From positions 9,858,001 to 9,922,000 of the forward strand of contig JAYWIR010000001.1 in the NCBI GenBank assembly GCA_036172245.1: DNA of 64,000 nucleotides, given 5' to 3'. This stretch comes from Raillietiella orientalis (taxonomy: Eukaryota). Within the stretch, counting starts at the first letter, position 1. Each line of letters opens with the position of its first letter. The position numbers and the translations under genes are program-made. Below the pieces are notes generated by a model that had not been told where the DNA came from, did no database searches, and worked only from the letters and a program-made list of their open reading frames with translations. Positions 1 to 29,200 of this stretch are shown in pieces.

Positions 1-187
1 GTCAGGATAATCGAGACTGCAAAGAACGTGGAGAGCACCATAACATATGAAGGGCAGCAATATTGAAAGTCACTAACAATTTTCAATTGCCTCAAACTTG
101 AAATTAGAGCTTTCATTTCATGTATCATCATGTGATTATACAAGTGCTTTGTAGACATTACAATTTATTCTTCAGCGAAGTTGTCAT
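1..187 (-). CDS. Possible 5' end of a membrane-protein gene running off the window (exons 187-162 and 72-1)
   Basis: ATG at 187, GTAATG donor and TTGTTAG acceptor join in phase to give MTTSLKNKFDFQYCCPSYVMVLSTFFAVSIILT, a hydrophobic stretch. No family recognised. Confidence 0.3.
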
Positions 188-1382
188 CAACTCATCTCAG
201 CTGAAGATTTTCACGCTCACGAGCATCTTTGATAAATAGCAGTGATGTCGAAACGCAAAACCAAATTACAAAAGCTCAAAATTTATTATTAATTGAAATT
301 CTTACAAAATTGTCTTGGTCTGGAAAAAAAAGGAAAGGAAAGAAAGAAAAGAGCACTATAATCACAGGAATAATTAAGGGAGCATCAGTTTTCGATAGGA
401 CAGCTTCCTTCAGAGCATAAACAAATCGTGTATCCTGCGTCACGTGTGACCCGTGATTGATAAGTTTTAGGTGCGGGTTCACTGGGCAACAAAAGATGGG
501 TGTAATCGTTTCTAACGAAAACCTATGATCGTTTCTCGAAAAGATTAGATTGGATTAGATTATGGTGGACGGCGGCAAGAAGAAAACTCTGAAACGGGTC
601 ACCCTTGAATTCCGTCGCGGGCCGCAGGGCTCCCATCATCAGATTTCAGTTTGGAGAGACGTTGAATTCGACGGTTGCAGTTGAGGGCTGGCTTTCTTTC
701 TTTCCCTCGCCATGAAACCAGCACAGACAAAGCCCTCACTCGAACAGCAACCTTGCCCGAAAGTCGGCCCCCTGAAACACGGCTGCCACGGGCCGAGGAG
801 ACCGGCCCGTTGCGGAGTTTCGGTGTCAGCATGAGAGAGGATCCTTTCTTCTGACACGAGCACTGTGTGACGCCTGCCGGCAGCGTTGGGTCGGGCGCAG
901 CCGAGTGGTTTTCGGAAACAGGTTGTCAGAACATGTTTGAAGTCCAACTTACTGCATGTGACCCTTCCACAAAATTTTTGACCCTTCCACAACGTGACTA
1001 GATGTAAAAAAGTATAGACTGTCTTTACGTATACGCATTAGATGAAGCTTTATGTATTTGTATATCTTTGTTTTTTCTCGCCAGTGTTCTGCATGTAGTC
1101 TAAAGAGATTTTTAATGTTTTCATTTCATAAGCTGCCTTGTGAACTTAAAATGTTTAAGTGAATTATCCGCAGTTCCCAAGAGGCATTTCCTCTGAGCAA
1201 ACATTCCCGTGGGAAATGGGTATAAGCACGTGAAATATACCTCCTCCGAGTGACGTAGTGTCAAAATCCACTTGCAAGCTAATTCATTTCAACAGCAAAG
1301 TATCAGGTCACATTTGGACACTTGAGATATAAAAGCCAAAATAAATGAAAATACACATACACTACTAGCAGCAGATAAACAA

Positions 1383-2859
1383 ATGGCAGTAAACTTCGCT
1401 GATGTGAAGCTCCCCAAATTGTGCATAAAGTCCTTCAAGCCATGTGAAGATGAGATAGAGGAAATTCAGGAACGGTTCCAACAGTACATTGATGTTATTG
1501 GTCAGAAAAAGTTGCAGAAAAGGTATGCTGACCAGGGGGAACTCTTGAGAATGTTTTGCCATTTGTGTGCATAACTTAAACCCTCTCCAAAAGATGAAAG
1601 CATGCATTCAACTAGTCTTAAGGCACAGTAATCTTTTCATAATCATTTGTGTGCCGTGTTTTCAGAAAAGACTTGATGACAGGAGTTTGGATAGAAGCAA
1701 AAAGAGCAGTGCACCTAACCAAAGTGCGGGGCAACCAGTGGCAACATATGGGCTTTAGTGATCATTTTTTAGGAAAAAAAGAGAAGTTCATTCTTGAGGA
1801 GGAAGCCCTTTTTCTGATGGAAACTGTATGTCTGTATGTAATGGTGAATACAAATCCAAGCTACTTAAGGGAAAACTAGAAGTTCTATGGAATGGATATG
1901 CTTTAAGCATTCAGCATGCTTATCAAATATGGCTAACCAATCCTAGCAGACTGGATGCATACCAAGTGTACTCACATCTTAGCAGACAAGGATACAAACT
2001 CTTAAAATACAAGCTTCCAGAGGCTGCTTCTACTATTGTAAAAGACAAAAGTGATCAGCAGGGTTAGAATGCATTTACCTTCCATTCATTTATCTTATCT
2101 ACATTTAATTAGGAGGGGAGGAGGTTATCTATCAGTATACATATGTAGAAAGCTTAATATGAGAATATCATTGGAAAACGTCTTTTCTGTATCCAAAAGT
2201 CTTAAATTGGTGACACTTTTGGCTTCTTCAGATAGTTGGCCTTGTCTTCATTCCAAAGATGAGAGGGATGTTCTCAGCAAAAATCCACAGGTACCAGACC
2301 ATGCTGCAAAAAATTTTGCGCCATGTGATAAACACCAGGATGTTCATGGAGCAACATCCATCGTTGTGACCTCAGAGTCCAAGAGTGTAGCATCAACTGA
2401 GCAGACTAATGAAACATTGGCATTGCCAAGTACTTTACAACCAATTCTTAGCCAGAATGATTGGGATCTTGAATGTAAGTTTGTCTGGACCATAAGGTTT
2501 CTTTTTCTCCAGGATGCCATAGATAATGCTATGCTTACCAAACTCCAGATTATCTCCTATGGAACACCAGATCCTGCTGAAGGTGTAAGATGCTTTCCAG
2601 ATTATGACATTTTTTTACCTAATACAACAATGAAAAAGGGTTTGTTCCCTCACTTAAGGATGTGTATTTTGAAGTAGGTAGTGCATCTGTTTTATTTTGT
2701 TTCTTTAACCTACTTTACAAAAGGAATAAGGATGACCCCTTACAACAGGCAAGTTCAATGCAGGACAGTCAGGAATCATTGTTAGCATACAATGATGGAG
2801 GTACTGCAGTGTATTTACAAATGTACACTGCTTGCATTATCTCAGAGCCTTTTGGCTAG
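1383..2859 (+). CDS. TSEN54: tRNA-splicing endonuclease subunit Sen54; exons 1383-1522, 1666-1825, 1870-2062, 2232-2474, 2523-2673, 2724-2859 (about 340 aa; true 5' end may lie further upstream)
   Basis: Sen54 N-terminal motifs: GVWIEAKRAVHLTKVRGNQWQHMG, ILEEEALFLMETGKLEV, LSIQHAYQ, YQVYSHLSRQGYKL. All GT-AG joins are phase-consistent. AATAAA near 2894. Confidence 0.85.
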
Positions 2860-2950
2860 TTATTTTCAAGTAGAGATTCCTTTACATAAATTCAATAAAG
2901 TTGTCTGTATCGCTGAATAAGTCTATTTTTTACAAAGAAAGAAAAAAAAA

Positions 2951-3487
2951 TCATCTGGGAGGAAGAGGCATCATGGGCATGCCCATCACATGCCCTGGAT
3001 GTGAAGAAATAGCTACATTGGGTCCCAAAAGGATCTACATAATCTTAGAATATGAAATCCCTAGCCCCTATGATACCTGGCGATGCTGCTGTCTTTGCAT
3101 CTCTTCTGTCTGTGCACGCTCCACTTCAAAAACAACTGGTGCAAATAACACTGTACTAGTGGAGAAAATAATCCATGCTGCTGAACAACTAAAGTTGTAA
3201 AGTGTTTTCAACAGAGATATTGAACCAGTCATAAGGTTCCATGTGTGGTTGCGCACTGATGCTGGAAACATTTCATTCAAAGCCACAATGCGTTCAAACA
3301 AGGTTTCATCCTCCTGTACCGTACATGCTTATTAATTACAAGAAAAATAAAACATGTGCACCTCTTCATCCTCCAGACTGAATGGTGAGGCAACAGCAAC
3401 AGAAGTTTTCTCATCTGTGATTGCTACCTTCAGTGCATCTGTATTATCAGAAGCCACCGCGTTATCTTTTTCTTCTACTTTTTCCAT
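2951..3487 (-). CDS. TOMM22: Mitochondrial import receptor subunit TOM22; exons 3487-3362, 3313-3077, 3034-2951 (148 aa)
   Basis: Acidic N-terminus followed by EDETLFERIVALNEMFP, AAWIIFSTSTVLFAPVVFEVERAQ and RQILLGP, the TOM22 signature. Introns of 48 and 42 nt are GT-AG. Confidence 0.93.
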
Positions 3488-6400
3488 CAATGTGACTATA
3501 ACAAAACTAAGTTTACATTTTCATTAAGAATTTTTTGATTCAAGTCATTCGATTAATGAATTTAAAGATGAATGTAAATCAATGAATAATACGTTGATAT
3601 TGCGTTGGGACTACTTGAAATGTTATTCAAACAAATGATCACAATCTAAACTTGCGCTTTCCCTAACTCTTCCCTATCCCCGTCCCCCTCCCCCGCTTTT
3701 TTTTTTTTACGATTTTCGCCCACGAGCACGTGGATTTCGCTTCTTAATGAAAGCGCGTACATTTCGAGAACTGGCACACAAACAAACGCAAGTAGCAAAT
3801 CAAAAAATTACATACACCGAATTTTAAAAGTCCAATAAATAACGTGACTAGCCTGCCTCGCAAAAATTAATTCACATGAAATAAAGCAATGAAATGAAAC
3901 AAAGTATGAAAACCAATCATGTCAATACACCTTTCTTTCTTTCGAAGCGGCTGAGTTTTCTTCAATATTACACTCTTGACTCATGCGTAAATCTCTCTAA
4001 AAATATCAACAAGCAACTGCATTGAGAACCTTGACTTTTTCACATTTGTTATAGAGCGCAACCAGGAGAGCAAAGTTGCAGGACAGCAGCAGCCTTGCGA
4101 CCCAAGGATTTGGAAGCGCCTTCAGAGGTCTCAGGCTTTTATTTTTGTTTTCAACATATTCATGAATTTGTATTTCTCTTCAACATGCTTTATAAAAGCT
4201 TTTAGGAAATCACTTTACTTTTCACATGTGGGTAGCTTTTCTCTCCAAAAATTGCATTCTTTTAGCGTTTTCTTTTGCTCACAGAGAGAGAAACCATTAG
4301 GTAACAGATTTTTTTAAAAGAAACTGATCATCCGATACAACAAAAAATTGTCTTTCACAAAGTGACTGTGAAACCCATAAGATATTCGTGAATATTGCAT
4401 TTAAATGCTTCAATATCTCTGTTAAGTATTAATCGTATTGCCTATTTTGCATATGCTACAAAACTCTTGATGTGTTCATATATTGCATAATTTTTGTAAA
4501 TAAAAAAAGAAATGTGGAACAGATTTCATAGATCGGTAAAGTACACGAGAACTTGTTTATGACGTGAAGAGATTGACACTGATGAGAACTCATAAAGGAG
4601 GATCCAGTTTTGGGGTCAGATGTTTTAGCAAATGCTACCATTTTTCTGAAAACAAGATTACAAGTGAGAAATGACTGCCCACTTCGAGTATCTTGAAAGA
4701 CCAAGAAGAAATCCATCATCACGAGTCACACAACTATGCGGATGCTGAGCATGGTATCATGTCCCTTAAAATTTTTAAACGACGTGTACTGATGCATGTG
4801 TCATATACGGATCATACCTAGCATATGATTGCGCAAATGGGTAGTGCGCATTATATAGACACATACACAAGTATATAGTAAAAGCACATTTGTGTGATTA
4901 GGGTCGTAGGCATTATCTGTATGGAACATGAAGGACATACAAATAGTTATGTATCTTCTGTGTATTGCCATTTTATCTCGTATACGTGGCTGACCTGAGT
5001 GGCAGTTAAGCTCTGGAATAGAAATTAGGAACAGTATATTCTGTTGTTGACAGTTTGCTAAGAGATTCGAGGTGGAGTAAACGTGGAAGATGTTTCACTG
5101 TTTCAAAAAGAGCAAATGTTTTCAGGAACCTTTATAACAGAACTGGAGCAACTTGTTAGAGAGGGAGAGAAGAAAAGGCTTGGGATGGTTTCTTGCCACA
5201 TGAAGATTCGGTGCAGTATCAGAAATCTTCTGATATTCCAAACGCTGCCTCAGTTAGTGCTTTCGTGGCTCCTCCTTTCTTGTCAATTCCTCTGGCATTC
5301 GTTGAAGAAATTGGGTTGTTCCTTCTTTTGTTTTCTTTTCTTCCTTTCTTTCTACTCTTACAGTTATCGACCAAGTCGATACTTCAAAAAGAATAAACTC
5401 AGTATTTTAAAAGAATGTTTCTCCAGTCTGTTTCTTCTTTCCTGACTCAGTTATTTCTCTCCGGAACATGCGTTTTGTGCCTCTCTCACGTCCTTCTTGC
5501 CATCACGCAGACCGCGACCACCAGCTGAAAGACTCGCGCGACGTCACACGTACTGCATCTCTGTCCCGCCGCCGCCGTCGCTGCTGCTGTGCCATCAAGA
5601 GAACGTGAACAGATAGGCAGACACAGTGTACAGCAGCCGAAATTCACTTAAACGAATTCACGTGCACCTGGAGAGGTCACAGCTTGTCCTTCTAGTTCTT
5701 TCCTTCCCCCCTCCCCCTCCTTATTCCTCCCATCCCCAGAGTTCGATTTCCGCGTTTTCGGCGGGAACATAGGGAGGAAGTGGATTTTCACCTTCCAGAG
5801 AGGTCAGAAGGCTGCTTTCGGGGATGGAGGATCAGGACCGGGATTTCCAGCTTCTCCGCGGTTGTCATGTCAGAGCGGGAAGTGCCCGCTGGCGGGACTC
5901 AGGCGATGCCGCGGAGGCGCTCAGCAAAGGGACCGCCGCTACACCGCCTACTGAAGAGGGGGAAAGCGGCAGTAGCTCGCACGCGAGTTTGAGGCCACCC
6001 TCAAGAACTTCTGAGTGGCCGTCCGCATGACGACCCCAAGCGCCCGGAAAGGGAAGCGCGCCCGGCGACTCTTGGGCGAGCCCAATGGGAGGGAGGGACT
6101 TGTGCAAGAAGTTCTGCTTTTTCCTTCTTCTTTCGTTTTTTTTTTTTTTTTGTGTCTTTGTGCAGAGCCACCGCGTTGCCTCGGGTGATGCCGTCAGTGC
6201 GCGGGGAGCCGCAGCCCTCCTCAACGTCCAAGGGAAGAGCAGCCTCCCTGCTTCCGCGTCTTGCTTTTGTCCCCCCTCCTCCCCTCCCTTTTTTTGTTGA
6301 GACCCTAGAAGAGGCACCCCGATAGGGGGGACAGGCGGCACCCCTTGCTAGGGAGCGCGCGGCATCCAGGTGGTCCGCCTTGAGAGGGTGGACCTGCGGA

Positions 6401-7148
6401 ACACCTCTCTCAGATGGTGAGAAGGACTCGACCGCCTCGCTGCGAAGAGGATCAGGAGGTCCGGCGAGGACCACGGCCCTCTGAGGATGGCGGGAGTGAG
6501 GAGGGCAGCCTCGGCTCTTCCGCGTCCTCGCATCCGCATCTGGAAGCGCATAAGAGGACGGCTCAAGGACGGTTCGGAAGAACACGGAAGCGCGTCCCCC
6601 TCCCCCTTCCCCTGCGCTCTTCGTTGGAGGGGGGTGAGGGGGAGGGACTTCCGGGTGGCGACATATTTTCAGGGGAGCCTGAATCGAAGGATCACTGCTG
6701 ACCAGCCGCCTGCCAGCGGGAACCGCACACAGACCCGGCGACGGCGATCGATCTGGTCCCCCAGGATGATTCTGGAAGTGCGCGGTCTTCACGCGTCTTC
6801 GGGGAGGACCACCCTGAACCGATCTCCTCTGTCGCTGCTGCTGGCGAGGGGTGCAGAGGCGGAAGCGTCACCGAGGCAACGCGAGGCGTCAAGGGCGTGC
6901 CCTTTGCTTTCGTTTTCCCTCCTGCACTCGAAACGCGCACGCCTGCACGCCAGAACACGTGTATGTGTGTTTGCCCTGCACGTGTGCGTGCGCGAGTGTC
7001 CGGAGGAGGAGGCCTGGCTGGGAAGAGGCTCCGCACCGTCCACCGGCCACTCACCCCCTTTCCCTTCAGGGAAGGAAGGAACAGAGAGAAGTCTCCACGG
7101 ACGGGTGGACTGGGACGCGTGCACAGCCTGCTCGCGGTGAGGCGGTAC

Positions 7149-7178
7149 GGAGGAGGAGGAGGAGGAGGAGGAGGAGGA
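7149..7178 (+). repeat. (GGA)10 microsatellite
   Basis: Ten perfect GGA units read directly. Confidence 0.9.
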
Positions 7179-7689
7179 AGAGGGGAGAACGGAGGATCTC
7201 GCGCGGAGCCAGGTGTTCGCGATGGAACGGGTCGGGCGGAGAACGAAGACTGCAGAGGAGGGGGGAAGAAGAGGCTTCCCGGGGGGAACGGCAAACGACA
7301 CACTCAGCAGCACTGACTGTTTTCCAGCGGTCCGTGGGCCGGGAGGCGCCACTTCCGAGCGGGAGAAGCGGAGGGCAGCAAGCGCGTTGATGATGATGAT
7401 GGGGAGGAGGAGGAGGAGGAAAGGAAGAGGATGAGGGGGGGGGGAAAGGGAAAAGCAGAGAAAGCGCACATGAGAAAGAGCCCCTGGCTCCTGATGCCCG
7501 CCCAACATCTTTCAAGGACGGGAGCACTCGTTCGTGAGGGCACCCTGCTTTCGCAGCCTTCCCTCTCCTCCCGGATGTTCGCCCCGCCGCAGCACCCTCT
7601 TTCCCCCCGCCTCCCCTCCCGGTCTTACTGTCGCCAGCGTCAGGGGCGCCATCCCCGTGCTCGCCTTCTTCAGCGGACGTTGGTCCTCT

Positions 7690-7695
7690 TTTATT
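7690..7695 (-). promoter_or_regulatory. AATAAA polyadenylation signal just after the asnA stop codon
   Basis: TTTATT on the + strand, 5 nt beyond the TGA at 7701-7703, in otherwise GC-rich DNA. Confidence 0.5.
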
Positions 7696-7700
7696 TGCCC

Positions 7701-8711
7701 TCACAGCACGATGATTCCCTGGGCGTGGCACTGCTCCAGGATGTGCGCGGGCCACACGCTGCACTGGACCTCCCCGATGAAGCGCTTCTCCAGAAGGTAC
7801 ATGGCGACCCTGGACTGCCCGATGCCGCCGCCCGCCGTGTAAGGCAGTTGTTTGTCCAGGACGAGCCGGTGGTACTGGAGGTCGCTGCGGTGGAGGCAGC
7901 TGCCTTTGGTGAGCTGCTCGCTCAGGGCGTTCTCGTCCACGCGGATGCCGAAGCTGGACAGCTCCAGGGAGCGCTGTAGGGGCTCGTGCCACACCAGCAG
8001 GTCTCCGTTCATGCTCCAGTCATCGTAGTCCGGGCTGCGGGTGTCATGGGGCTGTCCGCTGGCCAGGACGTCCCCGATCTGCGTGATGCAGACCGTCCCG
8101 TGGCGCTTCGCGATGGCGTCCTCGCGCGCCTTGGGGTCCAGGTCGGAGTACATGCTCTCCAGCTCCTGCGTGGTGACGAAGTGCACCTCCCTCCGGTGCT
8201 TGGGCTGCAGCGCCGGGAACCTGCCTGTCACCTCCTCCTCCGTGTCCTTCAGTGCGTCCGAGATCCTCTGCACGAAGATGTGCAGTTCCTCCATGGTGCG
8301 CTCCTCTTTGGTGATGACGTACTCCCAGTCCCACTGGTCCACGTAGTTGGAGTGCGTCCAGTCGCAGCCCTCGTCCTTGCGGATGGCAGCCAGGTCCACA
8401 AGGATACCCTCGTGCTCGCGGAAGGAGTGGTCGTACAGGAACTTCCGCTTCCACTTGGCCAGGGAGTGCGGGATCTCCACCTCCATGCCGTCCGTGACGG
8501 AGAAGCGCACCGGCTGCTCTACGCTGCTCAGGTCATCGTTGAGCCCGGACTTGGACGGGATGAACAGCGGGGCCTGGGCCTTCACCAGGTTCAGTTGCTC
8601 CCTCAGGTGGACCTCGAAGCGGGACTTCAGGAAGGCCACCGCCTCCAGGGTCTCGAAGAAGTCCAGCTTGGACTTGTAGTCCTGCTTGTGGGAGGCTGCA
8701 AGAGCATCCAT
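7701..8711 (-). CDS. asnA: Aspartate-ammonia ligase (asparagine synthetase A), bacterial type, intronless, 336 aa
   Basis: Complete AsnA motif set: SGLNDDLSSVEQPVRF, HSLAKWKR, AIRKDE, HSNYVDQWDWE, HDTRSPDYDDW, NGDLLVW, ELSSFGIRVD, LPYTAGGGIGQSR, IGEVQCSVWP. The Met at 8711 matches the normal AsnA start. Confidence 0.96.
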   Translation of the reverse strand: MDALAASHKQDYKSKLDFFETLEAVAFLKSRFEVHLREQLNLVKAQAPLFIPSKSGLNDDLSSVEQPVRFSVTDGMEVEIPHSLAKWKRKFLYDHSFREHEGILVDLAAIRKDEGCDWTHSNYVDQWDWEYVITKEERTMEELHIFVQRISDALKDTEEEVTGRFPALQPKHRREVHFVTTQELESMYSDLDPKAREDAIAKRHGTVCITQIGDVLASGQPHDTRSPDYDDWSMNGDLLVWHEPLQRSLELSSFGIRVDENALSEQLTKGSCLHRSDLQYHRLVLDKQLPYTAGGGIGQSRVAMYLLEKRFIGEVQCSVWPAHILEQCHAQGIIVL

Positions 8712-9767
8712 CTCGGACGGACGTGCTCGCGCGGAATGCCTCCCGCCCCGAGGTGAAGGCGGCAGCCTCGAAGGCTGCCGCCCCTGCGCCTGCGCAGCGG
8801 GGGCGCCGTCGGGACCCCGCGCGCACGCGCACGCGAGGATGGGAAGGAGGGGGAAACGCGCGCCGCGTCCCCGCGGAGGTCCTCCCCTCGGGAAGGCAGG
8901 ACACGGTGCCCCCGTCCTCGAGTCTGGAGAGGAACGGGGGAAGCTCTTGCCTCTCCCGAAGCCGCAAGCCGTTTCCAACGCTCCACCAGCTTTCATCCCT
9001 CCTCCCTTGCATCATCTCCCCTGTCCGGAAGGCGGGACTCTGCCCCCTCACCCAGCAGAGAGCACAGTGGCCCGACCCCCTCCGGCGGGGGTCGGGCCAA
9101 CCCCAGAGCACGCGGGGGGGCTCCTGCGTACTCCTCACGTAAACGTTTCCCTCTCCCCCCTCCCTCTTGCTCATCGCGTCCTCAAAGTGCATTTCATTAA
9201 GAAAGAACCGGCGTGTTCGCGGGCGAGGGAGGTTAGCAGCGGCGGCAGGGAGAAACACGAGATGGGGCCAGAAAGACGAAAACGATGGGGGAGGGGAGGG
9301 GGGTCGGAACAAGAAGGCAAGCAGCAGCATCTGCTGCCCCAGAGGCGTGCATGCGGCTAACGTGCTCGACGCCTGCCGTGTCATTAGCACGCCGCGTGAT
9401 AGGGGGGAGGAGGAGCAGCAAGTTTCTCTGTCTCCAGACGGCAGTAGCGACATGATCCGGGATCGGTGGCGCGGGCGGGGGGAAGAGGAGGAGGAAGAGG
9501 GGAAGAGGAGGAGGAAGAGGGGGGGGGGGCAAAAGCCTAGGGACCACGAAAATAAGGGTGCGTGGGTGCGTGCTCACGCCACGTAAGCCCCGTTCTGTAA
9601 CCGTTGGCGTGCGCCGCCACGAAGGGCGGTCGCCACACGGACGGCGTTCGCATCTGTCTTTGCTCGGACCAATCGCGGCTCCCCGGGGGGAAGCACGCGG
9701 CAAGCGTTCCGCCTGCGGGCTCTCCCACGCGGCGTCCGGGGACTTTCCTCGGGTGGGGGGGGGCAGC

Positions 9768-10531
9768 ATGGCCCGAGTATCGCGGTTAACCCGTACGTAC
9801 TCTGTGCGTGCACCCGAATGCGAACCCTGCGTGAGCACAGCCACGGGTACGGAGCGCTTCCGCCGGCCGCCTATATGTGCCCCGCTTCCGCTCCCTCCGC
9901 GTAGCTACTTTCCTTTCGCTCGTGGTAAGCAGCCGCCGAGGCGCCTGAGCACGCTGGCGCCGGCTGTTCCGCGCCAGCACCAGATACCAAACTTTGTGCT
10001 CATTAGCGTTTCCCATGTCGGGACCTCGGGAGGGGAGAATCCCGCTGTTCCCGAGCCGCCGGGGCATCCGCGTGCTCGCGACGCGCGCACGAGCCCGAGA
10101 GCGTCGAGTGGAGTCCTCTGCACGCACGCCGATTAAGGTCGAAGCAAGCGAGCGTTCCCCAACTTGACTTTCGAATGCGACATGTGCTCCCCTGAGTGTG
10201 CGTAAGAGGTATTGTAAGAGGTGCCATAAACGCAAGTTTTATGATCTGTTTTTTTTCTTTTCTTTTCTTGCATTCACGCCTACGGCATAGGTGTAAGTGC
10301 TCACCCGAGTACCACTATGAAAACAACAGTATTCCACGAGACGTTTATGGTTTCAAAAAAGTGCCTTGATCCAATTTTTCAATCATCCCAGGATATACAG
10401 ATGCTCCGAAAGTCCACAGCAAGCCCCCAGTTCTGGATCCAAGGTTCCCCTGGAGGGCAGCTTGTGGAACTCGGGATTGCTGCACCACGGAGCCTTTCCC
10501 GCAATGGCTGAAGAACGATACTCGAGTCTGA
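9768..10531 (+). CDS. Candidate small secreted Cys-rich prepropeptide; exons about 9905-9924, 9978/9984-10071, 10138-10201, 10291-10349, 10392-10531 (5' end uncertain)
   Basis: Phase-consistent splicing removes in-frame stops and gives a hydrophobic leader (ATFLSLV-IPNFVLISVSHVG), RRSKR, then AFPNLTFECDMCSPECACKCSPEYHYENNSIPRDVYGYTDAPKVHSKPPVLDPRFPWRAACGTRDCCTTEPFPQWLKNDTRV*. An AT-rich 3' region with AATAAA follows. Confidence 0.55.
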
Positions 10532-13870: not shown

Positions 13871-15380
13871 TCACAAGTTGTAATGTTTGCGGTAGGAGTT
13901 GGTCATTGGAACAATCCCTAAACGGATGAGTGAGTGAGCCATATCTAGAAGAGTTTCCTCAACTGGGCGTGGCTCTATCTTTAGAACTTTCCTCATCTGG
14001 GACACAGGCAGGTCAGAAAAAAACTCCATTGTTTCTCTTCTCTCTTACCCTACTGTTGTCAAATGGAACCACAACATCCAGTCTAGGATACACAAACTCT
14101 CTCAACTGCTTGTGGAAAAACTTCCCGATCCACAATATGAATTTAGGCCCTGTGCGGGTTGTAGGGTAGTATCCTAGAGGAGTCAGCTCCTTGGCAAGGA
14201 TCTGTCCAATTTCTGACATGAAAAGTGTCTCAGTAAATATGATGTGTCGGTGTCCTGATGTTATTGGGTTCTGTAAGGCCTGAAGATGAGCTTCAGCCAC
14301 ATCACGGACATCGCAGATCCCCATTGATAAGCTGGGGTTGACAGGCAAGCGTCGCTTCAGGATGTCTACCAGAATCTGCAAGAGGTTACTGAAAGTGAAA
14401 GTGCAGGAGTTTCTTTACTTTCACAGATGTAGCTCCAGCAACCCCACGGCTAAGCACAGGACCAAACACAACAGCAGGATTGATGACAGCCAAGTCAAAC
14501 TGGTGGTCGTCTATTGTTTATCGTTAGCCTTACTGCACCTGCTTCATGCACCAACCTGGTAGATTGCGTACAAAATCCCAAGCGGCCCTTTCTGCAAGAG
14601 TCTTGCTGACATAATATGGATCAACATCGGGTTTGTCCGTGTTGGTCCAATCGTTCTCTGCATAGACTTTGTGCTTCTCAGCTGTGACATCACCTGGAAC
14701 CTGGCTGTAGGTGGGTTAGCAGCACACACTGACTTACCAAAAATAGCTGCACAGCTACTGGTTAGAACAACCTTTCGAACTGTTCCTGATTTAACACATG
14801 CTCTGAGTACAGCCTGAGTACCTTGTAATGCAGGCTTTATAACGTCATCTGGGTGACTGATAGAATCAGAAAGTACGAAAGGACTAGCCACATGTATCAC
14901 ATAATCACAGCCTTCCACTGCACTGGAATGCAAATTGACACGAGCATGAATGACAGAATCAGTGGCCTGTCTGGAGCCGATGCAAATTCAACGGGGGCAC
15001 GGAGTAACAAGGCAAGAATGTCTTCCTCACCTTTCCCATGACTTCTCATCCAAGAGGTCGGCTTCCGCCAACTCTAGTTTATGAGCAGCATCTGGACACA
15101 AATTGTAGAGTGGTGCGATCTTTTCTTCGTTCTGCAGGCTTCGCACCGTTCCCCTCACTCGGAATCCTACTTCCTGCAACCTCCTTACAACGTGGTTAGC
15201 AATGAAACCCGAGGCTCCGGTGACAAGAACGAGGCCTTCTAGGGGGGGAAGAGAGAGAGAAGGGTGGGGAGGGGAACTTACAATCGGAGGATGCAAGCCA
15301 GCACGCGTGTACACCCCGAAATAACAGCCGTACACCCGAAATGTCCGTAACGGCGGCCCCATCGCGGACGGTTCGGCCAT
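13871..15380 (-). CDS. NAD(P)-dependent epimerase/dehydratase (extended SDR; dihydroflavonol-reductase/aldehyde reductase II-like); exons about 15238-15031, 14922-14738, 14693-14556, 14510-14419, 14375-14049, 13996-13871; first exon uncertain
   Basis: LVLVTGASGFIA Rossmann motif, VRGTVRS, VIHVASPF, VVLTSSCAAI, catalytic YYVSK (YxxxK), INPAVVFGP, DVRDVAEAHL. Short GT-AG introns are in phase. Confidence 0.92.
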
Positions 15381-17925
15381 TTCCCGCGCCCACGCATTCC
15401 GCGCATGCCTGCCCTTCAATGCGCCACACAGAGCTCTCCGCACGAAACAGCAAATTCCTGATGCGCAATCGGAGACGGACGGAACGCAACCCACGTTTTA
15501 CATAAAATAACCCCCCTCCCCCCCCCGTAAAAAAATTCCCCCCCCCCCGAAAAAAAAAAAAAAAAAACTCGAACATGGGCGGACGGGTGGGGGCACCTCG
15601 GGAAAAAAATCCGTTTTCCACCAAGCAGCGCACGTACGTTAAGCTCCGGCAAGTGCAGCACCGTGGGCATGGCATCCTCCTCTTGGAGGAATGCGTGTCA
15701 CAAAAACCGTACACGAGTCGGCTCACCAATTTTTCGGAAATGCTTGGGGCCGCACAAAGTTTTTCCATGTACACAATTCGCGTTCAAATGCATGCCAAAC
15801 AATTACACATTTTTGTCAAGAAAAAGTACTTAAACTTGCGTACCAGGCAGCTTAGTCGGATGACCCATCAAATTTGAATAAACTGATGAACCAAACTACA
15901 GAATTCGAGTAGAGTGGTGTTAAGTGCGTTCCAAAGCAGTGCATGTTACCTTGGGCAATTCTGAAAGGGAATATATGCCGGTTTTGTGATTAAGGTCAGC
16001 TTAGAAATGCCAAAGGATATTACTCAGTCGGCTGTCAGATGGTTGAAGATATTGACGGTGACAGCTGCTCTGCACCTGAATTCCCAGATCGATATCCAAT
16101 GCTAAGAACTTGAAATAATAATAATAATGACAATTAAAAAAAAAAAAAAAAAAAAAAAAAGCTGCAATTTTGAGTCAGCGTTCACCCCGCTGCAAAAAAG
16201 AAAAGAAAAAAAAAAACGGCTGTGGTACTATGCAGAAATGGTCAACAACAGAAAAAGAAGCTCAATACAAGTTGGTCAACTTACCAGCTGCAGAGCCCGA
16301 AGCAGCATCAACGCTAATCAACGAATATTGATTTCATGAAAGGGAAACCGTGAATAATAGGTCAAGACGTCCGTTTAGAAAGTCTTCGAAAATGGGAAAG
16401 GATCCTGGGATCGTCCCTAAAAATTCACCGCCTCCTATTCACGTTTATAACGTCTTTTTTCCCCTCTCCTTCCTTACTTTTTTTTTTTTAAAAAAAAGAA
16501 AAGATCCACATCTGAGTATTTGTGATGCTGTGATATAATTCTTTTATTCTATACATTTGTTTATGGTTTCTCTTGCTGCTTCTGGAGTCGGGACGCGAAT
16601 CCCAAGAAAGACGATGTGTGAAGTGAAAATCATCAAGAACGAATGGGGCAGTTCGTCGTGTCCCCCCTCTCAGTAAGGTCTTCACCCACCCCACCCCTTC
16701 CTTTTTTTTTGAAGAAAAAAAAAAAAAACAATGAAAAATCACTGCTGAATTTTTGATTACTTATTTGGCGACTTATGCTGCATGATGATGCAACTGCATG
16801 AAAGTGAGAGTTCATCCCGGTTATGAGGCAACGCTGTGTGAATTATAAATCAGCGTTGCTTCTCGAATTCACACGCACGACCGTTAAACATCGTTGGGGT
16901 GCTGCTGCCATGTTGATTCGAAATGGAAAATGCACTGCTAAATGTGTGTGTGTGTGTTCTTTGTATTTGATGGAGGTCAGCGGCAATCTTCAGGACACTA
17001 CCTTTGTACCCTTTTTGATTTTGATTTTTTTTCTCCACTGGGATCGGGGATGTCAGCAGCTGGATTCGCGGAGGAGTTCTGCGATTGAGAAATGGGTTGA
17101 GGATGCTGGTGCACCACCGTCCTGCTTGAAGGCATGCGTCGCGCCGTCCTCCCTCGAACCAAAAGGGGATGGGTGAGTGCAGAGTAAGTCCACGCTTGCA
17201 GAGGTTCCTTACAGACCGGAGGGAAACGCGATTTGCGCTAGTGGCAGTCGGGAGGAGGAAGAGGAGGACGAGTGGAAACGCGCGCGGCTGTAAGAAGAAA
17301 AGCCCTCGGGCGACGACGTCGTCTCCGACCGAAGCGAGGGAAGAGAGCAGCTGGCTGCCTCCCCCTTTTCCCCCCAGCCCGACCCCTTCTCGCAGCGGCA
17401 GCAGCAGCGCGCTCCAGAAAGCGGAGTGGACCATTTCTTCAGTGACCGGTACCAAAGTTTAATCACATGGCTTCCCGCGTCGGATTCTGAGAAATCGAGG
17501 GAACGAAAAAGTCCCGGGCAAGGTCAAGGAGAAAGTTGGGTTCCTATTTACCACTCGGTCAATCCTTTCCCCGTGTCGGCGACCAAACAAACAGGCGACC
17601 TTGAAATTATTTTTCGGGGTCTTTGTTGTCCGCGGCAACGATTGGCTCGGGTCCCTCTCGAAGAGCTCTTTATGAAGAGGTGCCCGCTTAAAAACGCCTA
17701 TGCCATCCCCCATCCCAGGCAGATCCTCTACTGACGACCGTGCGGCTGTCGGGACCCAGGAACAACAGGCAGGAGGAAAAAAACCACAGAGAGCCTCTCT
17801 ACCCTCGCTTTGTCCGCTTTCCCTGCAAGAGATCACTGGGGTGAGTCTCCTGGGGTCGCGGGGAGGGAGTGTAGGAGGGAAGGGTGGGGCAGACGCCTCA
17901 CCACACACACTACCTGCCCCGTAGG

Positions 17926-18943
17926 ATGGAGAGGACGTGGCTGATACTCTTCCTCTTTTCTGCGGCGATGGCCGCGGAGGACCCGAACGACACAGGGGAG
18001 TACGTGAAGAAGTCCGAGGTCCTCGCCAAGCCCAATCCGGCGGCCTGCCACAAGAGTGAGTCCTGGGGGAGCGGGGGGAGGGGAAGAGGATGAGAAGAGA
18101 GGCGAGGGACGGCCTTTCCTTGACGTGACCTTCCTTGCCCCTCGCGAGCAGGGCAGAAGCACCTCAAGTTCCGCAGCAGCGACGGGACGGAGCACAGCTA
18201 CTTCATGAGCTGGAAGGACGGCAGCACGGCGAACCTCAAGTTCGACTGGCTAGGAGGTCGCAACTTTTGCCGCCAGCGGTGCATGGACCTGGTCAGCATG
18301 GAGACCCCGGAGGAGAACCAATTCGTCAAGAACCAGCTGAGGGGCGGTAGGACGCTGGACGCACGAGAAACCTCCGTCACCTACCCCTCCCTCCTCCTCC
18401 TGCTCCATCTCTTGCAGACAACATCAATTACATCTGGACCAGCGGCCGGAAGTGCAACTTTGTGGGCTGCGACAAGCCCAGCCTGAAGCCGAACAACGTG
18501 AACGGATGGTTCTGGGCGGCGACCGGTGAGTAGGCGCGGTCTCAGCGCGCGCACCCTCCTTCCCCGCGCTCGCACCTCTCCGGCGGGCGCCGGTGACTTG
18601 ACTTACGACGGCGCCGGTGGCGCACACGAACCGTCCGGCCGGTTCTCGTTCCCCAGGGGTGAGGCTACCGCCGACCAACCAGCCTAGCCTGAGCAGTGAC
18701 TGGGCCAAGGCGGGCTTCTTCATCAACCTCCCGCAGCCGGACAACCGCCAGTTCCGGTCCATCTTCGTACGCCGGGACGACGAGGCGTGCCTGGCGGTCC
18801 TGCATCCGGCGCTCTACAACGAACCCGATGGCGACTACCATTGGCACGACGTCACGTGCAACAACCGGAAGCCCGTCATGTGCGAGGACAGCGACGAGCT
18901 ATTGCGCTTCGTCGGCAGCACCAACCCGGGGCTCGCCCTGTGA
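17926..18943 (+). CDS. Secreted C-type lectin 1 (Clect27/CG6055-like arthropod family); exons 17926-18055, 18152-18346, 18418-18525, 18657-18943 (239 aa)
   Basis: Signal peptide MERTWLILFLFSAAMA; DWLGGRNFCRQRCMDLVSMETPEEN, YIWTSGRKCNFVGC, NGWFW, QPDN, WHDVTC, CEDSDELL. Confidence 0.93.
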
Positions 18944-21862: not shown

Positions 21863-22899
21863 ATGACAGCGGCGACCTCGCCCCTGCTCGGCTGCGCCCC
21901 GAATGCGGAGGAGCGGCGACAGTGCCTAAAGCACTTACTGTTGGTGGCGCTGGCCGCGCTGGCTCTTTGGGCGCCGCCGGCCGCGCGAGCCCAGAACGAG
22001 GACCCCAACGACACCGGCATCGTGGTGAAGAGTCCCGGGTCGCGCTCGTTGGTGCTGCCTGTTCCCGCGCTGTGCTCCAGACGTAAGCCACCCCTCAGTC
22101 CCCTCTCCTCACTCGGGAGCGCGTCTCTGAGTCCACGTGGGGTCGCGCGCTCCGGGACCCTTTCCTCCCTTCCCTCCCTTCGACTCACGCCCTTCCTCTC
22201 GCAGGTCCGAAGCACCTGTTCTTCCCCACCGCCAGCGGTGCACAGCACGCCTACTTCATGAGCTGGCAGGACAGCAACACGAGGAACGCCCGCGTGGACT
22301 GGCTGGACGGGCGCAACTGGTGCCGCCAGAGGTGCATGGACCTGGTCAGCATGGAGGACCCCCAGGAGAACGAGTTCGTGAAGCAGCAGCTGAGGAAAGG
22401 TAAAACTTGCTCGTCACCCTCCCATCCAGCTCCCCTTTCCCCATGCAGTGAAGCTGGACTACATCTGGACCAGCGGCCGGAAGTGCAACTTCGTGGGCTG
22501 CGACAAGCCCGAGCTCCGCCCCAACAACATCAACGGCTGGTTCTGGTCCGCCTCAGGTAAAGAAGGGAGGGGACTTTCCCACCACACACTCCCCTCCCTC
22601 CTCCTTCCCTCGTAGGGGTGAAGCTCCTACCCACCAACCAGAATACGCCACAGAACGACTGGGGCCGCACCGGTTACTTCAACCTCCCCCAACCTGACAA
22701 CCGCCAGTACCGGCCCATCTTCGCGCGCCGTGACGACGAGGCCTGCCTGGCCATCCTGAGCCCCACGCTCTACAACGAGCCCGACGGCGACTACCACTGG
22801 CACGACGTCGCCTGCTACCACAAGAAGTCCTTCATGTGCGAGGACAGCGACGAGCTGCTGCGCTACGTCCGTTCCACCAATCCGGGCATCGCCCTTTGA
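21863..22899 (+). CDS. Secreted C-type lectin 2 (tandem paralogue); exons 21863-22082, 22205-22399, 22449-22556, 22616-22899 (268 aa)
   Basis: Hydrophobic leader, EDPNDTG, DWLDGRNWCRQRCMDLVSME, YIWTSGRKCNFVGC, QPDN, WHDVAC, CEDSDELL. Same intron positions and internal exon sizes (195 and 108 nt) as lectin 1. Confidence 0.93.
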
Positions 22900-26200: not shown

Positions 26201-29200
26201 CCACGTCGCCACGAGCGCTGACATGCCATCCGAAAGTCTTCCCGGGTTGGATGGATTCTCAAGAGTCTGACCGTTCCCTTGCACAAGGGCGCCCCCGCTT
26301 TCGTGGCTTCGCGGAGCCGAAGTGAATTCAGATGGGCCCTTGGATGCCCCCCCGTGCTGGTCCAACTGCAGTGTCACCCGGCACGGCCGACGATTTTCCC
26401 ACGCCTATTCGCCTCTTCAAAAGGCGGTCCGCAGCTTTCGTACTAATTGATTCCTTGAGGAGTGGGACATTTCCTCTTCAACCTGTGTGCCGAGCTTTCG
26501 TGTTTCCCTCTAGAACGAAGAGGGCTAGTTGTCCTCCAAGCAGAGTTCTTTGGACCACGGATCATGTGAATCAGATCGCTTCGCGTCGGGGCTGCGAGCG
26601 AAACTGCTACTGGAGTCGCGGCCACAGCCGTGAGGCGACCCACGTGGCCGCGGGAAAGTTTACGTTCGGCGCTGTTTGCCTTTTCTTGCTGTTCTTAGGA
26701 GGGAAAGTGGCCAGGCGGGCCACGCCATGTTCGACACTTGGGGAACGGCTGGCTTTGAGTAGGTCGCCCCCTCGCGGCAAGTTGGCACCTATTCCTCGTG
26801 GCGACTGCGATCGCGCGCATCCAAAGACCTCGGTAGGAAGCGGGGCGCGACAATCAGCTGACCTCTCCGAAGCTATCGGCTCCAAGCTATTGGGCGCGGG
26901 CATTTTCCAGAGCGGGTAGGTTCCTAAGGACCGGAAACGAGTGCCCGCTCGGGGGGGGGGAGCACGCCTCCGTGGGAGTCCCTGGCGGCCGCCCAATCTT
27001 CTGAGCGCCGTTGACCTTGCGCGTGCGACGAACACAGCATCATCGTCCGGATCGGTGTACTTCGAGTGCATCTCGCGCAGGCGACGAGGAACCCTCCTCG
27101 TCGCCGTGGGAGGAAAAACACCACCGCGGAGAGCCCAGGACGGCGTGAAGGGAAGCGACTGCGAGTCGACCTCGATGAGATCGCGTGTTCGCCGGGACGT
27201 GAGATCCCGGCCAGCTGACGATGGGGGAGGGGGAGAGCTGCGGCGACGTCCGTTCGCCTTGCGCCGATGATGCTGGAGTGTCATGACCGCACAATCGCCA
27301 CAATGACCAAGGTGATGTCGGACGACACCGGTGCTGATCACGTGACGACATTGGTCTGCATTCAGGGAAAAAACCTTTTCCTGAGGAAGCCGGGAAGAAA
27401 CAGACAGTTTTTCCGCCTTCTCCCCCTCCCTCTCCCCTCCTTTTGCCCTCTTCCCTTCCTCCTCACCTCCCCCTCCAACCTTTTAAAAGAGCTTCGCGGC
27501 GCACGGAAGGAACACTGGGAAAGAGAGGTCAGGGCTAGAGGGGAAGGTCACCTTCGAATAGATATTCCTGGAACCTTATCGTCACGGCAGGGTGCTTCAG
27601 CAAGAAGAGGTTCACAGGGACTGAGTGGCTCGCCAGGTGCTCCGCAATCCTCAGCAGCGGGATCTCCCAAAGGACCGTCGTCAGCAGCTGAGAAAGAGAA
27701 GAAGGGTTGGAAAAACTTGGCGGCATGCCATAGCCTAAGGAGAGGAGACTCACGTTGCCCACGCTCGAAATGAGGGAACGGGAGTTCTGGCTACCGCTAG
27801 TCCTGAAGAAGGACTCGTAGTAAAGGTATTTCAGCTGGTCGGCCTCGTCTGCCGAGTGGATCCCTGAAATGCAGGGCTGCTGCGAAGAGATGGAAGGTGA
27901 GGGAATGTTGGCGCGGGATGAAAGGGAGCAGGTAGAGAGTGCGGGGAACACCCAGGGAAGGAGGGAACGCAGAAGGGCTGTCCCTCCCACCGCGAAGGGG
28001 GTAGCGGCCAGAAGCCGCCACCCTGAGGCGCGCATCCCCAGCTCTTCGGCGCGCGGAGGACCCACCATTCCTCCCCGCTTTGGAAACCTCACGGGGTGGG
28101 CGAAATGGCGGAAGAATGGAAGCGCTTCCTTCGCCCGGGCTCTTCCGAGCAGCGCCACTGGTTGAAGGAGCGGAGTGCGCGCGCAGGAAGACGTCCCATG
28201 CCTGAGAAAAGCGAGAGACGTTGAGGGAAGGATGCAGGCACTGGAGAGGGGCGAAGAGATGGGGCCCAAACGGGACCTTCTCCGTCCCTCCTCGCCACCA
28301 AGCAGCCAATCAGCGGTCGAAGCCGTGCAGGAGCAGACTTCGAGGCTTCTCGTTCCCGCTGCTCGTGGGAGGGGCACTTAGTAGATGCTAGCATCTGCTG
28401 CGCGCCCCTCCCCTCCTCCCTCCCCATCTGCTGGCGTTTGTTCACTCCAAGGCGTTTCGGATGCCCCTTCTGAGACCCATAAGAGAAACTTTCTGCGGGA
28501 TGGTCGGGGAGAGGACGGCCGCCGAAACTCCAGGAAGTCGGGACGCAGGCGCGTTGTGCTTGCCGGTGGGAACGCAGTGACGGTCGACCCCAGGAGGAGG
28601 ACTGGTGCGAGTCCCGTCGTGCCAGCAGGAGATGGTCGTGGGACAGCGACTCCCCCTGACCCCCTGCGTCCGCCGTAGTGCCGAACACAGCCCTGGCGCG
28701 CTCCCTTCCTCGCCGGTGCCGATCCGGTGTGGGAGAAGGAGGGAGGGAGAGAAGGAGGAGTCCAGGGGATATTTGGGGATCGGAGTAGGGGAGGCTTGGG
28801 GTCGGCCTTCTCCCCGAGGAATCTTCCCCGCCCACTTTCTCTTCTGCCATCCCCACAAAAGATGCCGGGCGGCAGGGAGAGCGGGAGGGGGAGTGAAAGG
28901 GGGAGAGGGTCGAGAAGACACGAGGTGCAACCGGGAGCTCACCTGAGAAGTTGACGAGGAAGGGCAGGTGGGTGGCCTTGAAGGCGTCCTCGGCGACGAG
29001 CGAGCCGTTAGACGACCTCAGCCACGAGGCGTCGTGCAGTTCTGAGCGGCCAATCAGACGGCTTTAAACCACCTCGTCGCCGACGGCCGCTTACCGTAAC
29101 AAACCTTTAAGTAAAGCCAGGCCTTCATCCTGTCCCCAGCCTATCATGATGGGCACGGTAGCGGGCTCCCGGGAGAGCAGCAGACTGGCGGGGTCCGTGG

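Follow-up and report, generated by a model that had tools for sequence, protein, structure and literature searches.

A bacterial-type asnA gene, probably domesticated after horizontal transfer, in animal-like DNA

The asnA locus

We analyzed a 64,000-nt stretch of contig JAYWIR010000001.1, called the window throughout, to which all coordinates are relative. Its minus strand carries an intact gene for the bacterial-type asparagine synthetase AsnA (aspartate-ammonia ligase). The window is eukaryotic, animal-like DNA in which asnA is physically embedded in the assembly, and the gene is probably a domesticated horizontal transfer. The features of the immediate locus are the following.

7130..7444, plus strand: (GGA)n-type purine-rich microsatellites downstream of asnA
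7690..7695, minus strand: AATAAA, candidate polyadenylation signal (read directly; presumed usage)
7701..8711, minus strand: asnA coding sequence (aspartate-ammonia ligase), a single exon of 336 codons plus TGA, from the open reading frame (ORF) and its translation
8712..9569, minus strand: GC-rich (0.66) stretch between the RNase MRP gene and the asnA ATG, presumed promoter and 5' untranslated region
9570..9839, minus strand: eukaryote-specific RNase MRP RNA gene (RF00030, 62.8 bits against a gathering score of 50, E value 3.8e-15, full model 1-266)

As originally predicted, asnA encodes an intact AsnA of 336 aa without introns. Its single minus-strand frame runs from the ATG at 8711 to the TGA at 7701-7703 with no stop or frameshift, and the product is matched by Pfam, NCBIfam, and PDB sequences. 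The signals proposed for its two ends were likewise read in the DNA. The start context is CCGAGATGG, in which GAGATGG places a purine at -3 and a G at +4 in the manner of a Kozak sequence, and the Shine-Dalgarno motif AGGAGG was not found upstream of the ATG. After the stop codon come GGGCA and then AATAAA (7690-7695), a poly(A) signal candidate lying 5 nt past the TGA.

The asnA frame remains open upstream to an ATG at 8996, which would give a protein of 431 aa with 95 extra codons, and this was considered as an N-terminal extension or targeting peptide. It was rejected as coding sequence because the in-frame region 8712-8996 has GC fractions of 0.71/0.78/0.69 at the three codon positions, with no third-position periodicity, and because the start point of the bacterial homologues coincides with the ATG at 8711. 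With no N-terminal extension, AsnA would be cytosolic. A tblastn search of the window recovered this gene alone (next match, E value 0.18), with no second copy or fragment of asnA.

Family membership and predicted fold

The chemistry of AsnA, an enzyme resembling class II aminoacyl-tRNA synthetases (EC 6.3.1.1) and lacking a tRNA-binding domain, is established, and the window gene is a genuine, intact, bacterial-type member of this family. The protein matches PF03590 (AsnA) with an E value of 1.3e-85 and 287.2 bits against a cut-off of 27, covering profile positions 2-227 of 228; this is its sole Pfam domain, and no anticodon-binding domain was found. The NCBIfam asnA equivalog TIGR00669 is matched at 296.1 bits against a cut-off of 292.8 (profile 9-326 of 330). 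Among AsnA chains in the PDB, the sequence search returned 9v83 (E value 5.8e-81), Escherichia coli 11as (4.2e-71), and Trypanosoma brucei 4lns (1.4e-61). The corresponding bit scores were 276 for the best chain, 243 for E. coli, and 212 for 4lns, the most distant of the three, which aligns as two stretches because the parasite enzyme carries a long insertion.

The AlphaFold model, computed from an alignment of 57 sequences, has a mean predicted local distance difference test (pLDDT) score of 95.4 and a predicted template modeling score of 0.93. Superposed on E. coli AsnA 11as, it gives template modeling (TM) scores of 0.90/0.93 and a root mean square deviation of 1.1 Å over 323 columns. Further fold matches were T. 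brucei AsnA (TM 0.80/0.88) and the catalytic domains of AspRS and AsnRS (TM 0.59-0.67).

A separate observation concerns TIGR00669 itself. In small (0.7-1.1 Mb) genomes of the phylum sample, the asnA loci L093-L103 contain 4-7 in-frame sense TGA codons, and all score below the cut-off, at 250-283 bits. The TIGR00669 cut-off therefore evidently excludes some plausible real AsnAs.

Relatives and phylogenetic placement

The search for relatives took in 7996 scored proteins from a collection of 5.8 billion clusters. The best true match, P0003, is 55% identical (181/330), and the 120 matches listed fall at 49-55% apart from one artefact. The protein with the top score, P0002 (NCBI, 533 aa, 479 bits), was considered as a fused AsnA and rejected because segments of it are internally duplicated and rearranged; misassembly or a faulty gene model of a bacterial AsnA is the probable explanation. 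HMMER over 1.84 billion representatives returned 2374 matches at E values of 0.001 or less, including 311 at 1e-30 or less, of which the best full-length match is 50% identical. When one genome of each prokaryotic species was scanned, 110 of 158 pattern matches were relatives; the best 80 are all at most 52% identical and come almost entirely from Bacillota (Lachnospiraceae, Oscillospiraceae, and Erysipelotrichaceae), with one from Gastranaerophilales. Scanning metagenomes produced 193 matches, of which 129 were relatives; identity again goes no higher than 52% in the best 80, and where a source is named it is often a human-gut assembly. Overall, the closest relatives belong to Bacillota, for the most part Clostridia of the gut. 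No relative more than 55% identical to the window AsnA was found in the 15-billion-protein collection, which includes assemblies of public sequencing runs. The near-identical gene from a contaminant bacterium that would have spoken against domestication was thus not found among the proteins (best 55%) or the genome and metagenome loci (best at most 52%). Because the closest bacterial counterpart is at most 55% identical, the gene is unlikely to be a recent contaminant and is most simply read as an old acquisition.

The loop DDWSMNGD has the short, two-residue form DDW-xx-NGD that is common to Bacillota-type homologues, whereas E. coli and other long-loop proteins carry 9 more residues here, so the earlier description of this loop as Firmicutes-like rather than E. 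coli-like stands. In a quick tree of 60 rows, rooted on E. coli, the window AsnA fell at the base of the Bacillota-type set without a resolved placement, on an end branch of 1.26 against a median of 0.31; across the trees its end branch measured 1.01-1.26 against medians of 0.31-0.52. A quick tree of 59 rows, which took in 40 unlabeled representatives, paired the window AsnA with P0165 (Shimodaira-Hasegawa-like approximate likelihood ratio test [SH-aLRT], 85). We treat this pairing as long-branch attraction because the two proteins are only 40% identical and the pairing is absent from the more careful tree. That tree, of 36 rows, placed the window AsnA inside a 22-row set holding all labeled Bacillota-type sequences (ultrafast bootstrap 91, SH-aLRT 85), within which it forms part of a polytomy. 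A Bacillota-type origin is favored on three counts: the highest identities, the short loop held in common, and the careful tree. The placements in the three trees agree with one another but are weak, and none points to a particular donor family.

The gene might instead have reached the animal indirectly, by way of a second eukaryote (for example, a gut protist or a parasite) in which a bacterial asnA was already present, or have been inherited vertically over a long time in a poorly sampled animal or holozoan clade. Either course would be compatible with the long, isolated branch and the lack of a resolved bacterial sister, and several eukaryotic groups living in or on animals already carry asnA, according to the papers cited below. 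The comparisons made here point elsewhere: E. coli AsnA and the best PDB chain are both closer to the window protein than the T. brucei enzyme is, the sequences of highest identity all come from bacterial-type contigs, and the largest collection held no relative above 55%. We regard an indirect origin as rather unlikely.

Conserved residues and constraint

The window protein was aligned with 222 bacterial sequences (119 proteins and 103 loci), from which P0002, the divergent paralogue-like loci L106-L115, and the fragments L104 and L105 were excluded. Of 80 columns that are near-invariant (at least 97% conserved in the 222 sequences), 72 are kept, including the SLAKWKR block, R111, HS..VDQWDWE (with Q126), DYDDW (with D230), D237, E250, S253, R257, and GGGIGQSR. 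The ATP-motif residues G294-G295-G296, G298, Q299, S300, and R301 are all present, and in the alignment with E. coli AsnA, Q126 falls on Q116 and D230 on D219. The roles of GGGIGQSR, Q126, and D230 in the window AsnA are in part ones that we take them to have. By our own mapping, Q126 and D230 would correspond to the Asp-Gln pair D222-Q118 of LmAsnA, which is described as anchoring the aspartate beta-carboxylate in a paper that also describes a glycine-rich ATP site (PMC3532385). The eight columns that differ are I25V, R44K, G63S, V81P, Y95H, M107L, M254F, and H311F. The last three are all changes to hydrophobic residues, and none is among the residues mapped to catalysis. The claim that all substrate and ATP motifs are present accordingly holds for the residues that can be mapped to substrate or ATP binding, but not for every near-invariant column, three of which are otherwise 100% invariant. 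Overall, the protein passes the curated family thresholds over its full length, has the core fold of class II aminoacyl-tRNA synthetases, and keeps GGGIGQSR and the Asp-Gln pair, without retaining all family-invariant residues.

Tajima relative-rate tests with E. coli as the outgroup were run on 16 triplets. The window lineage had more unique changes in all 16 (for example, 38 versus 23 changes, p 0.055, and 46 versus 23, p 0.006), with p below 0.05 in only 3 of them. Since the excess is modest, AsnA does not appear to be drifting freely. The long branch probably reflects mostly deep, unsampled divergence together with mild acceleration, and the pattern fits continued purifying selection with some lineage-specific change, though it is no substitute for a ratio of nonsynonymous to synonymous substitution among orthologues.

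These data also bear on whether asnA, although integrated, has lost its function, either as an unexpressed or decaying insertion whose frame happens to be open or as a neofunctionalized paralogue that no longer makes asparagine. Such a fate could explain the replacements at invariant positions, the eight changes in 80 near-invariant columns, and a TIGR00669 score that lies just above the cut-off and some 40-60 bits under those of bacterial homologues. It is harder to square with 336 codons free of stops and frameshifts, with 72 of 80 near-invariant columns kept, including all mappable substrate and ATP residues, or with a model at pLDDT 95.4 that is near-superposable on E. coli AsnA. The relative-rate excess is merely modest, and the gene has a GC fraction of 0.93 at third codon positions (GC3) against 0.36 at second positions (GC2), a signature that the neighboring noncoding in-frame stretch lacks. 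Loss or change of function is in our judgment unlikely.

Genomic surroundings

The RNase MRP RNA gene lies on the same strand as asnA, 859 bp upstream of its ATG and within the same GC-rich island, and its conserved blocks GGAAAGUCCCCGGAC and GGGGCUUA align to the model. Further from asnA, the window contains five recognized protein-coding genes.

14040-15236 (about 14.0-15.3 kb), minus strand: short-chain dehydrogenase/reductase (SDR)/epimerase gene with split exons (3Beta_HSD, E value 2.7e-9; Epimerase, 5.4e-7 and 7.7e-7)
17881-18940, plus strand: C-type-lectin-like gene 1, tandem paralogue of the gene at 21902-22896
21902-22896, plus strand: C-type-lectin-like gene 2, with GT-AG introns of about 48 and 58 nt
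27580-31089, minus strand: multi-exon carboxylesterase-family gene, three exons of which match COesterase (E values 2e-21, 5.3e-10, and 0.0017)
56853-59850, plus strand: multi-exon coiled-coil (CCDC39-like) gene, two 50-aa exons of which match CCDC39 colinearly

In agreement with the earlier observation that no other bacterial genes lie nearby, the 10 ORFs flanking asnA between 5865 and 10136 match no Pfam family, bacterial or otherwise. The window has no Ns. Repeats of (GGA)n and GGGGAAGAGGAGGAGGA(A/G)GA bracket asnA, at 7130-7205, 7389-7444, and 9462-9528. With up to 1 mismatch allowed, (GGA)5 matches 19 times in the window against 0.03 expected, and (GGA)n also occurs at 17.2, 18.4, 19.0, 35.5, 41.8, 56.6, and 58.4 kb. 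Because (GGA)n is found on both sides of asnA and elsewhere, the flanks of the gene look like the same genome as the rest of the window. The repeats at 7398-7444 and 9482-9528 (83% identical over 47 nt) were considered as target-site duplications and rejected, this being (GGA)n low complexity of a kind common across the window.

An assembly artefact would mean that a fragment from a contaminating bacterium, or from an unrelated GC-rich organism, was misjoined into a eukaryotic contig. An intronless gene of bacterial type, the sole one in the window, set in a 4.6-kb GC-rich island between AT-richer stretches, is what such a join might look like. A eukaryote-specific RNase MRP RNA gene in that same island speaks against it, however, as do the absence of Ns, the lack of any bacterial ORF adjoining asnA on either side, and the (GGA)n repeats on both sides of the gene and across the window, where similar GC-rich islands are common. 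No bacterial genome or metagenome sequence searched is more than 52-55% identical to the gene, and asnA has an AATAAA and a start context with a purine at -3 and G at +4. We consider an artefact of this kind very improbable.

The identity of the host can be approached through its neighboring genes. A language-model Atlas look-up placed a lectin exon at 0.96 to C-type lectin clusters; for this exon and an esterase exon, the top clusters (0.96) have few labeled members (1/57, 2/59, and 38/582), mostly Arthropoda. Introns of 48-58 nt fit an arthropod host but are unspecific. Together, the two look-ups and the short introns give a weak lead toward an arthropod.

Composition and codon usage

The GC fractions of asnA by codon position are 0.63/0.36/0.92-0.93, and GC3 is 0.84-0.92 in the lectin exons and 0.78-0.93 in the CCDC39-like exons. 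When the lectin, esterase, and CCDC39 exons, which came from a scan demanding a GC3 of at least 0.8, are pooled (1029 codons), their relative synonymous codon usage (RSCU) correlates with that of asnA at r 0.94; for 16 of the 80 bacterial homologue loci, r is -0.52 to 0.83. The gene matches its own island of 62-66% GC, which it shares with the RNase MRP gene; islands like this 4.6-kb one, lying between AT-richer stretches, make up much of the window. The asnA gene therefore combines a host-like composition with eukaryotic start and poly(A) signals, subject to the caveats on GC3 given below. Its composition agrees with long residence and is, alone, no strong proof of it.

Origin and possible role of asnA

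Taken together, the DNA makes it likely that the intact asnA is an old horizontal acquisition in an animal-type genome and is still functional. Its donor would have been a bacterium whose AsnA was of the short-loop, Bacillota type, and it would now be integrated in the nuclear DNA of a eukaryote of animal type, perhaps an arthropod. The transfer would be old enough for identity to every sequence searched to have fallen to at most 55% and for codon usage to have come to resemble that of the GC-rich surroundings. The old horizontal transfer that had been proposed is thus supported by the eukaryotic embedding of the gene, its host-like composition, and the lack of any bacterial counterpart above 55% in the collections searched.

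Several observations weigh against this reading. Intron-containing animal genes had been described on both sides of asnA, yet the recognized host genes all lie on one side, above 8711, and neither a GC3-periodicity scan nor Pfam on ORFs found a gene in 1-7700; physical linkage to host genes on one contiguous sequence is therefore present within the assembly from one side only. The trees put the window AsnA in no named donor clade in any of the three. On the careful tree, constraining it to the E. coli-type clade of long-loop sequences lowers the log-likelihood by 11.8 units, for an approximately unbiased (AU) test p of 0.078, and on the larger quick tree the same constraint beats the free search (AU p 0.759), so the phylogenetic signal is weak. 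For eukaryotic AsnAs, the comparison consists of the T. brucei PDB chain, and the trees are composed of other sequences. The match in codon usage is partly circular because the comparison exons were selected for high GC3, and some bacterial homologues themselves reach a GC3 of 0.88-0.91 and an RSCU r of 0.82-0.83. The SDR gene, about 5.3 kb upstream in a stretch of 48% GC, has a GC3 of just 0.24-0.54. The likeness of asnA to the lectin and CCDC39 exons in its very high GC3 is thereby confirmed in its values but weakened as evidence. With regard to function, M107L, M254F, and H311F replace residues invariant in 222 of 222 bacterial sequences. The margin over the TIGR00669 cut-off is narrow, five bacterial homologues scoring 333-355 bits, and because the cut-off is barely cleared, AsnA activity may be altered or lost.

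Genes a few kilobases on either side of the SDR gene reach a GC3 of 0.84-0.93. As a low-GC3 gene stands near high-GC3 ones, GC3 appears to track local GC in this genome.

If the old, functional transfer is accepted, the activity of the enzyme can be predicted from the chemistry of its family. ATP would activate the beta-carboxylate of aspartate to form beta-aspartyl-AMP, and free ammonia would then attack this intermediate to yield asparagine, AMP, and pyrophosphate, with glutamine unused. With a cytosolic AsnA, the host would be able to make asparagine independently of glutamine, consuming ammonia, alongside ASNS. To our knowledge, animals are taken to make asparagine only via the glutamine-dependent ASNS. 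An active AsnA would equip animal nitrogen metabolism with a step that assimilates ammonia directly, and one may speculate about a role in nitrogen salvage, detoxification, or redundancy. The fuller proposal, that an animal, possibly an arthropod, keeps and expresses a working AsnA derived from gut-type Bacillota and uses it to recycle or detoxify nitrogen or else to replace or back up ASNS, is one that we put forward tentatively and with slightly more doubt than belief. If it is correct, M107L, M254F, and H311F would mark adaptation to the eukaryotic cytosol.

Comparison with known AsnA and ASNS systems

Among Bacillota-type AsnAs, the proteins P0003 and P0009 (Youxingia wuxianensis) and the loci L007 (Anaerotruncus) and L010 (Erysipelothrix) resemble the window protein in length (326-341 aa), start, and short loop, and short-loop AsnAs of this type share 47-55% identity with it over the full length. 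Unlike them, the window gene has eukaryotic flanks, a poly(A) signal candidate, three invariant-residue replacements, and no Shine-Dalgarno motif. E. coli AsnA (11as/12as), whose biochemistry and structure have been characterized, has the same fold and 42-45% identity, and its ATP motif and the residues at Q116, D219, and R299 are conserved in the window protein. It differs in the 9-residue longer loop after DDW and belongs to the long-loop group, from which the AU test (p 0.078) does not decisively separate the window protein. The usual animal enzyme, AsnB/ASNS, belongs to an unrelated fold and family and prefers glutamine as amide donor, although, like AsnA, it makes asparagine from aspartate and ATP (PMC3532385).

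In the literature, asnA is described as being of bacterial origin, or as a horizontal transfer candidate, in rumen ciliates (PMC1413528), anaerobic gut fungi (10.1101/487215), Cryptosporidium (PMC545779), and microsporidia (PMC3879972), and as of bacterial origin in the kinetoplastids T. brucei and Leishmania major as well as in Entamoeba and Trichomonas (PMC3532385). The same text describes kinetoplastid AsnA as E. coli-like, with 58% identity to the E. coli enzyme, and reports that it has been pursued as a drug target because humans have no AsnA (PMC3532385). T. brucei AsnA (4lns) carries a long insertion and is further from the window protein than E. coli AsnA is. Like the window gene, these are bacterial asnA genes in eukaryotic nuclear genomes; their hosts are protists and fungi, whereas the neighbors here are of animal type. 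The transfer of asnA from bacterium to eukaryote is therefore an already known and repeated kind of event. If the window gene works, its animal host would join the eukaryotes that independently captured asnA (ciliates, gut fungi, Cryptosporidium, microsporidia, and kinetoplastids). Because eukaryotes have captured it repeatedly, a recurrent selective advantage in ammonia-rich, gut-associated settings is suggested.

Bacterial metabolic genes in the genomes of arthropods and other invertebrates are well documented. We found no report of AsnA in animals in the literature searched; if the reading is true, the window gene would, within that literature, be the first metazoan AsnA on record. The main text of one compendium of metazoan horizontal transfers has 0 occurrences of asparagine, asnA, or ammonia ligase, and an entry in its supplementary gene tables is possible (PMC13342648).

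Further features of the window

Beyond the genes discussed above, the long GC-rich ORFs elsewhere in the window match no Pfam family, and no tRNA genes were found in the window.

The predicted CCDC39 neighbor was recovered in part. One of its two small exons matches CCDC39 residues 208-244 (E value 4.6e-5) and the other residues 127-171 (E value 0.15), and the former also matches human CCDC39 and Chlamydomonas FAP59 (E values 0.03-0.04). The largest coiled-coil exon (236 aa), by contrast, has no homologue, PDB, or Pfam match, and neither does the exon at 58202-58621. With its larger exons unmatched in these searches, most of the CCDC39-like protein appears to be highly diverged.

Two lectin exons match Lectin_C below the gathering score (E values 0.0082 and 0.058), and the last exon has no PDB or Pfam match. 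The last exons of both lectin genes are very similar to each other (...YHWHDV.C..K..MCEDSDELLR.V.STNPG).

The carboxylesterase-family gene evidently holds an intron, because consecutive profile positions lie about 360 nt of DNA apart. Members of this family usually carry a GESAG nucleophile elbow; the window gene reads GIGSGS at that site and may be a non-catalytic member.

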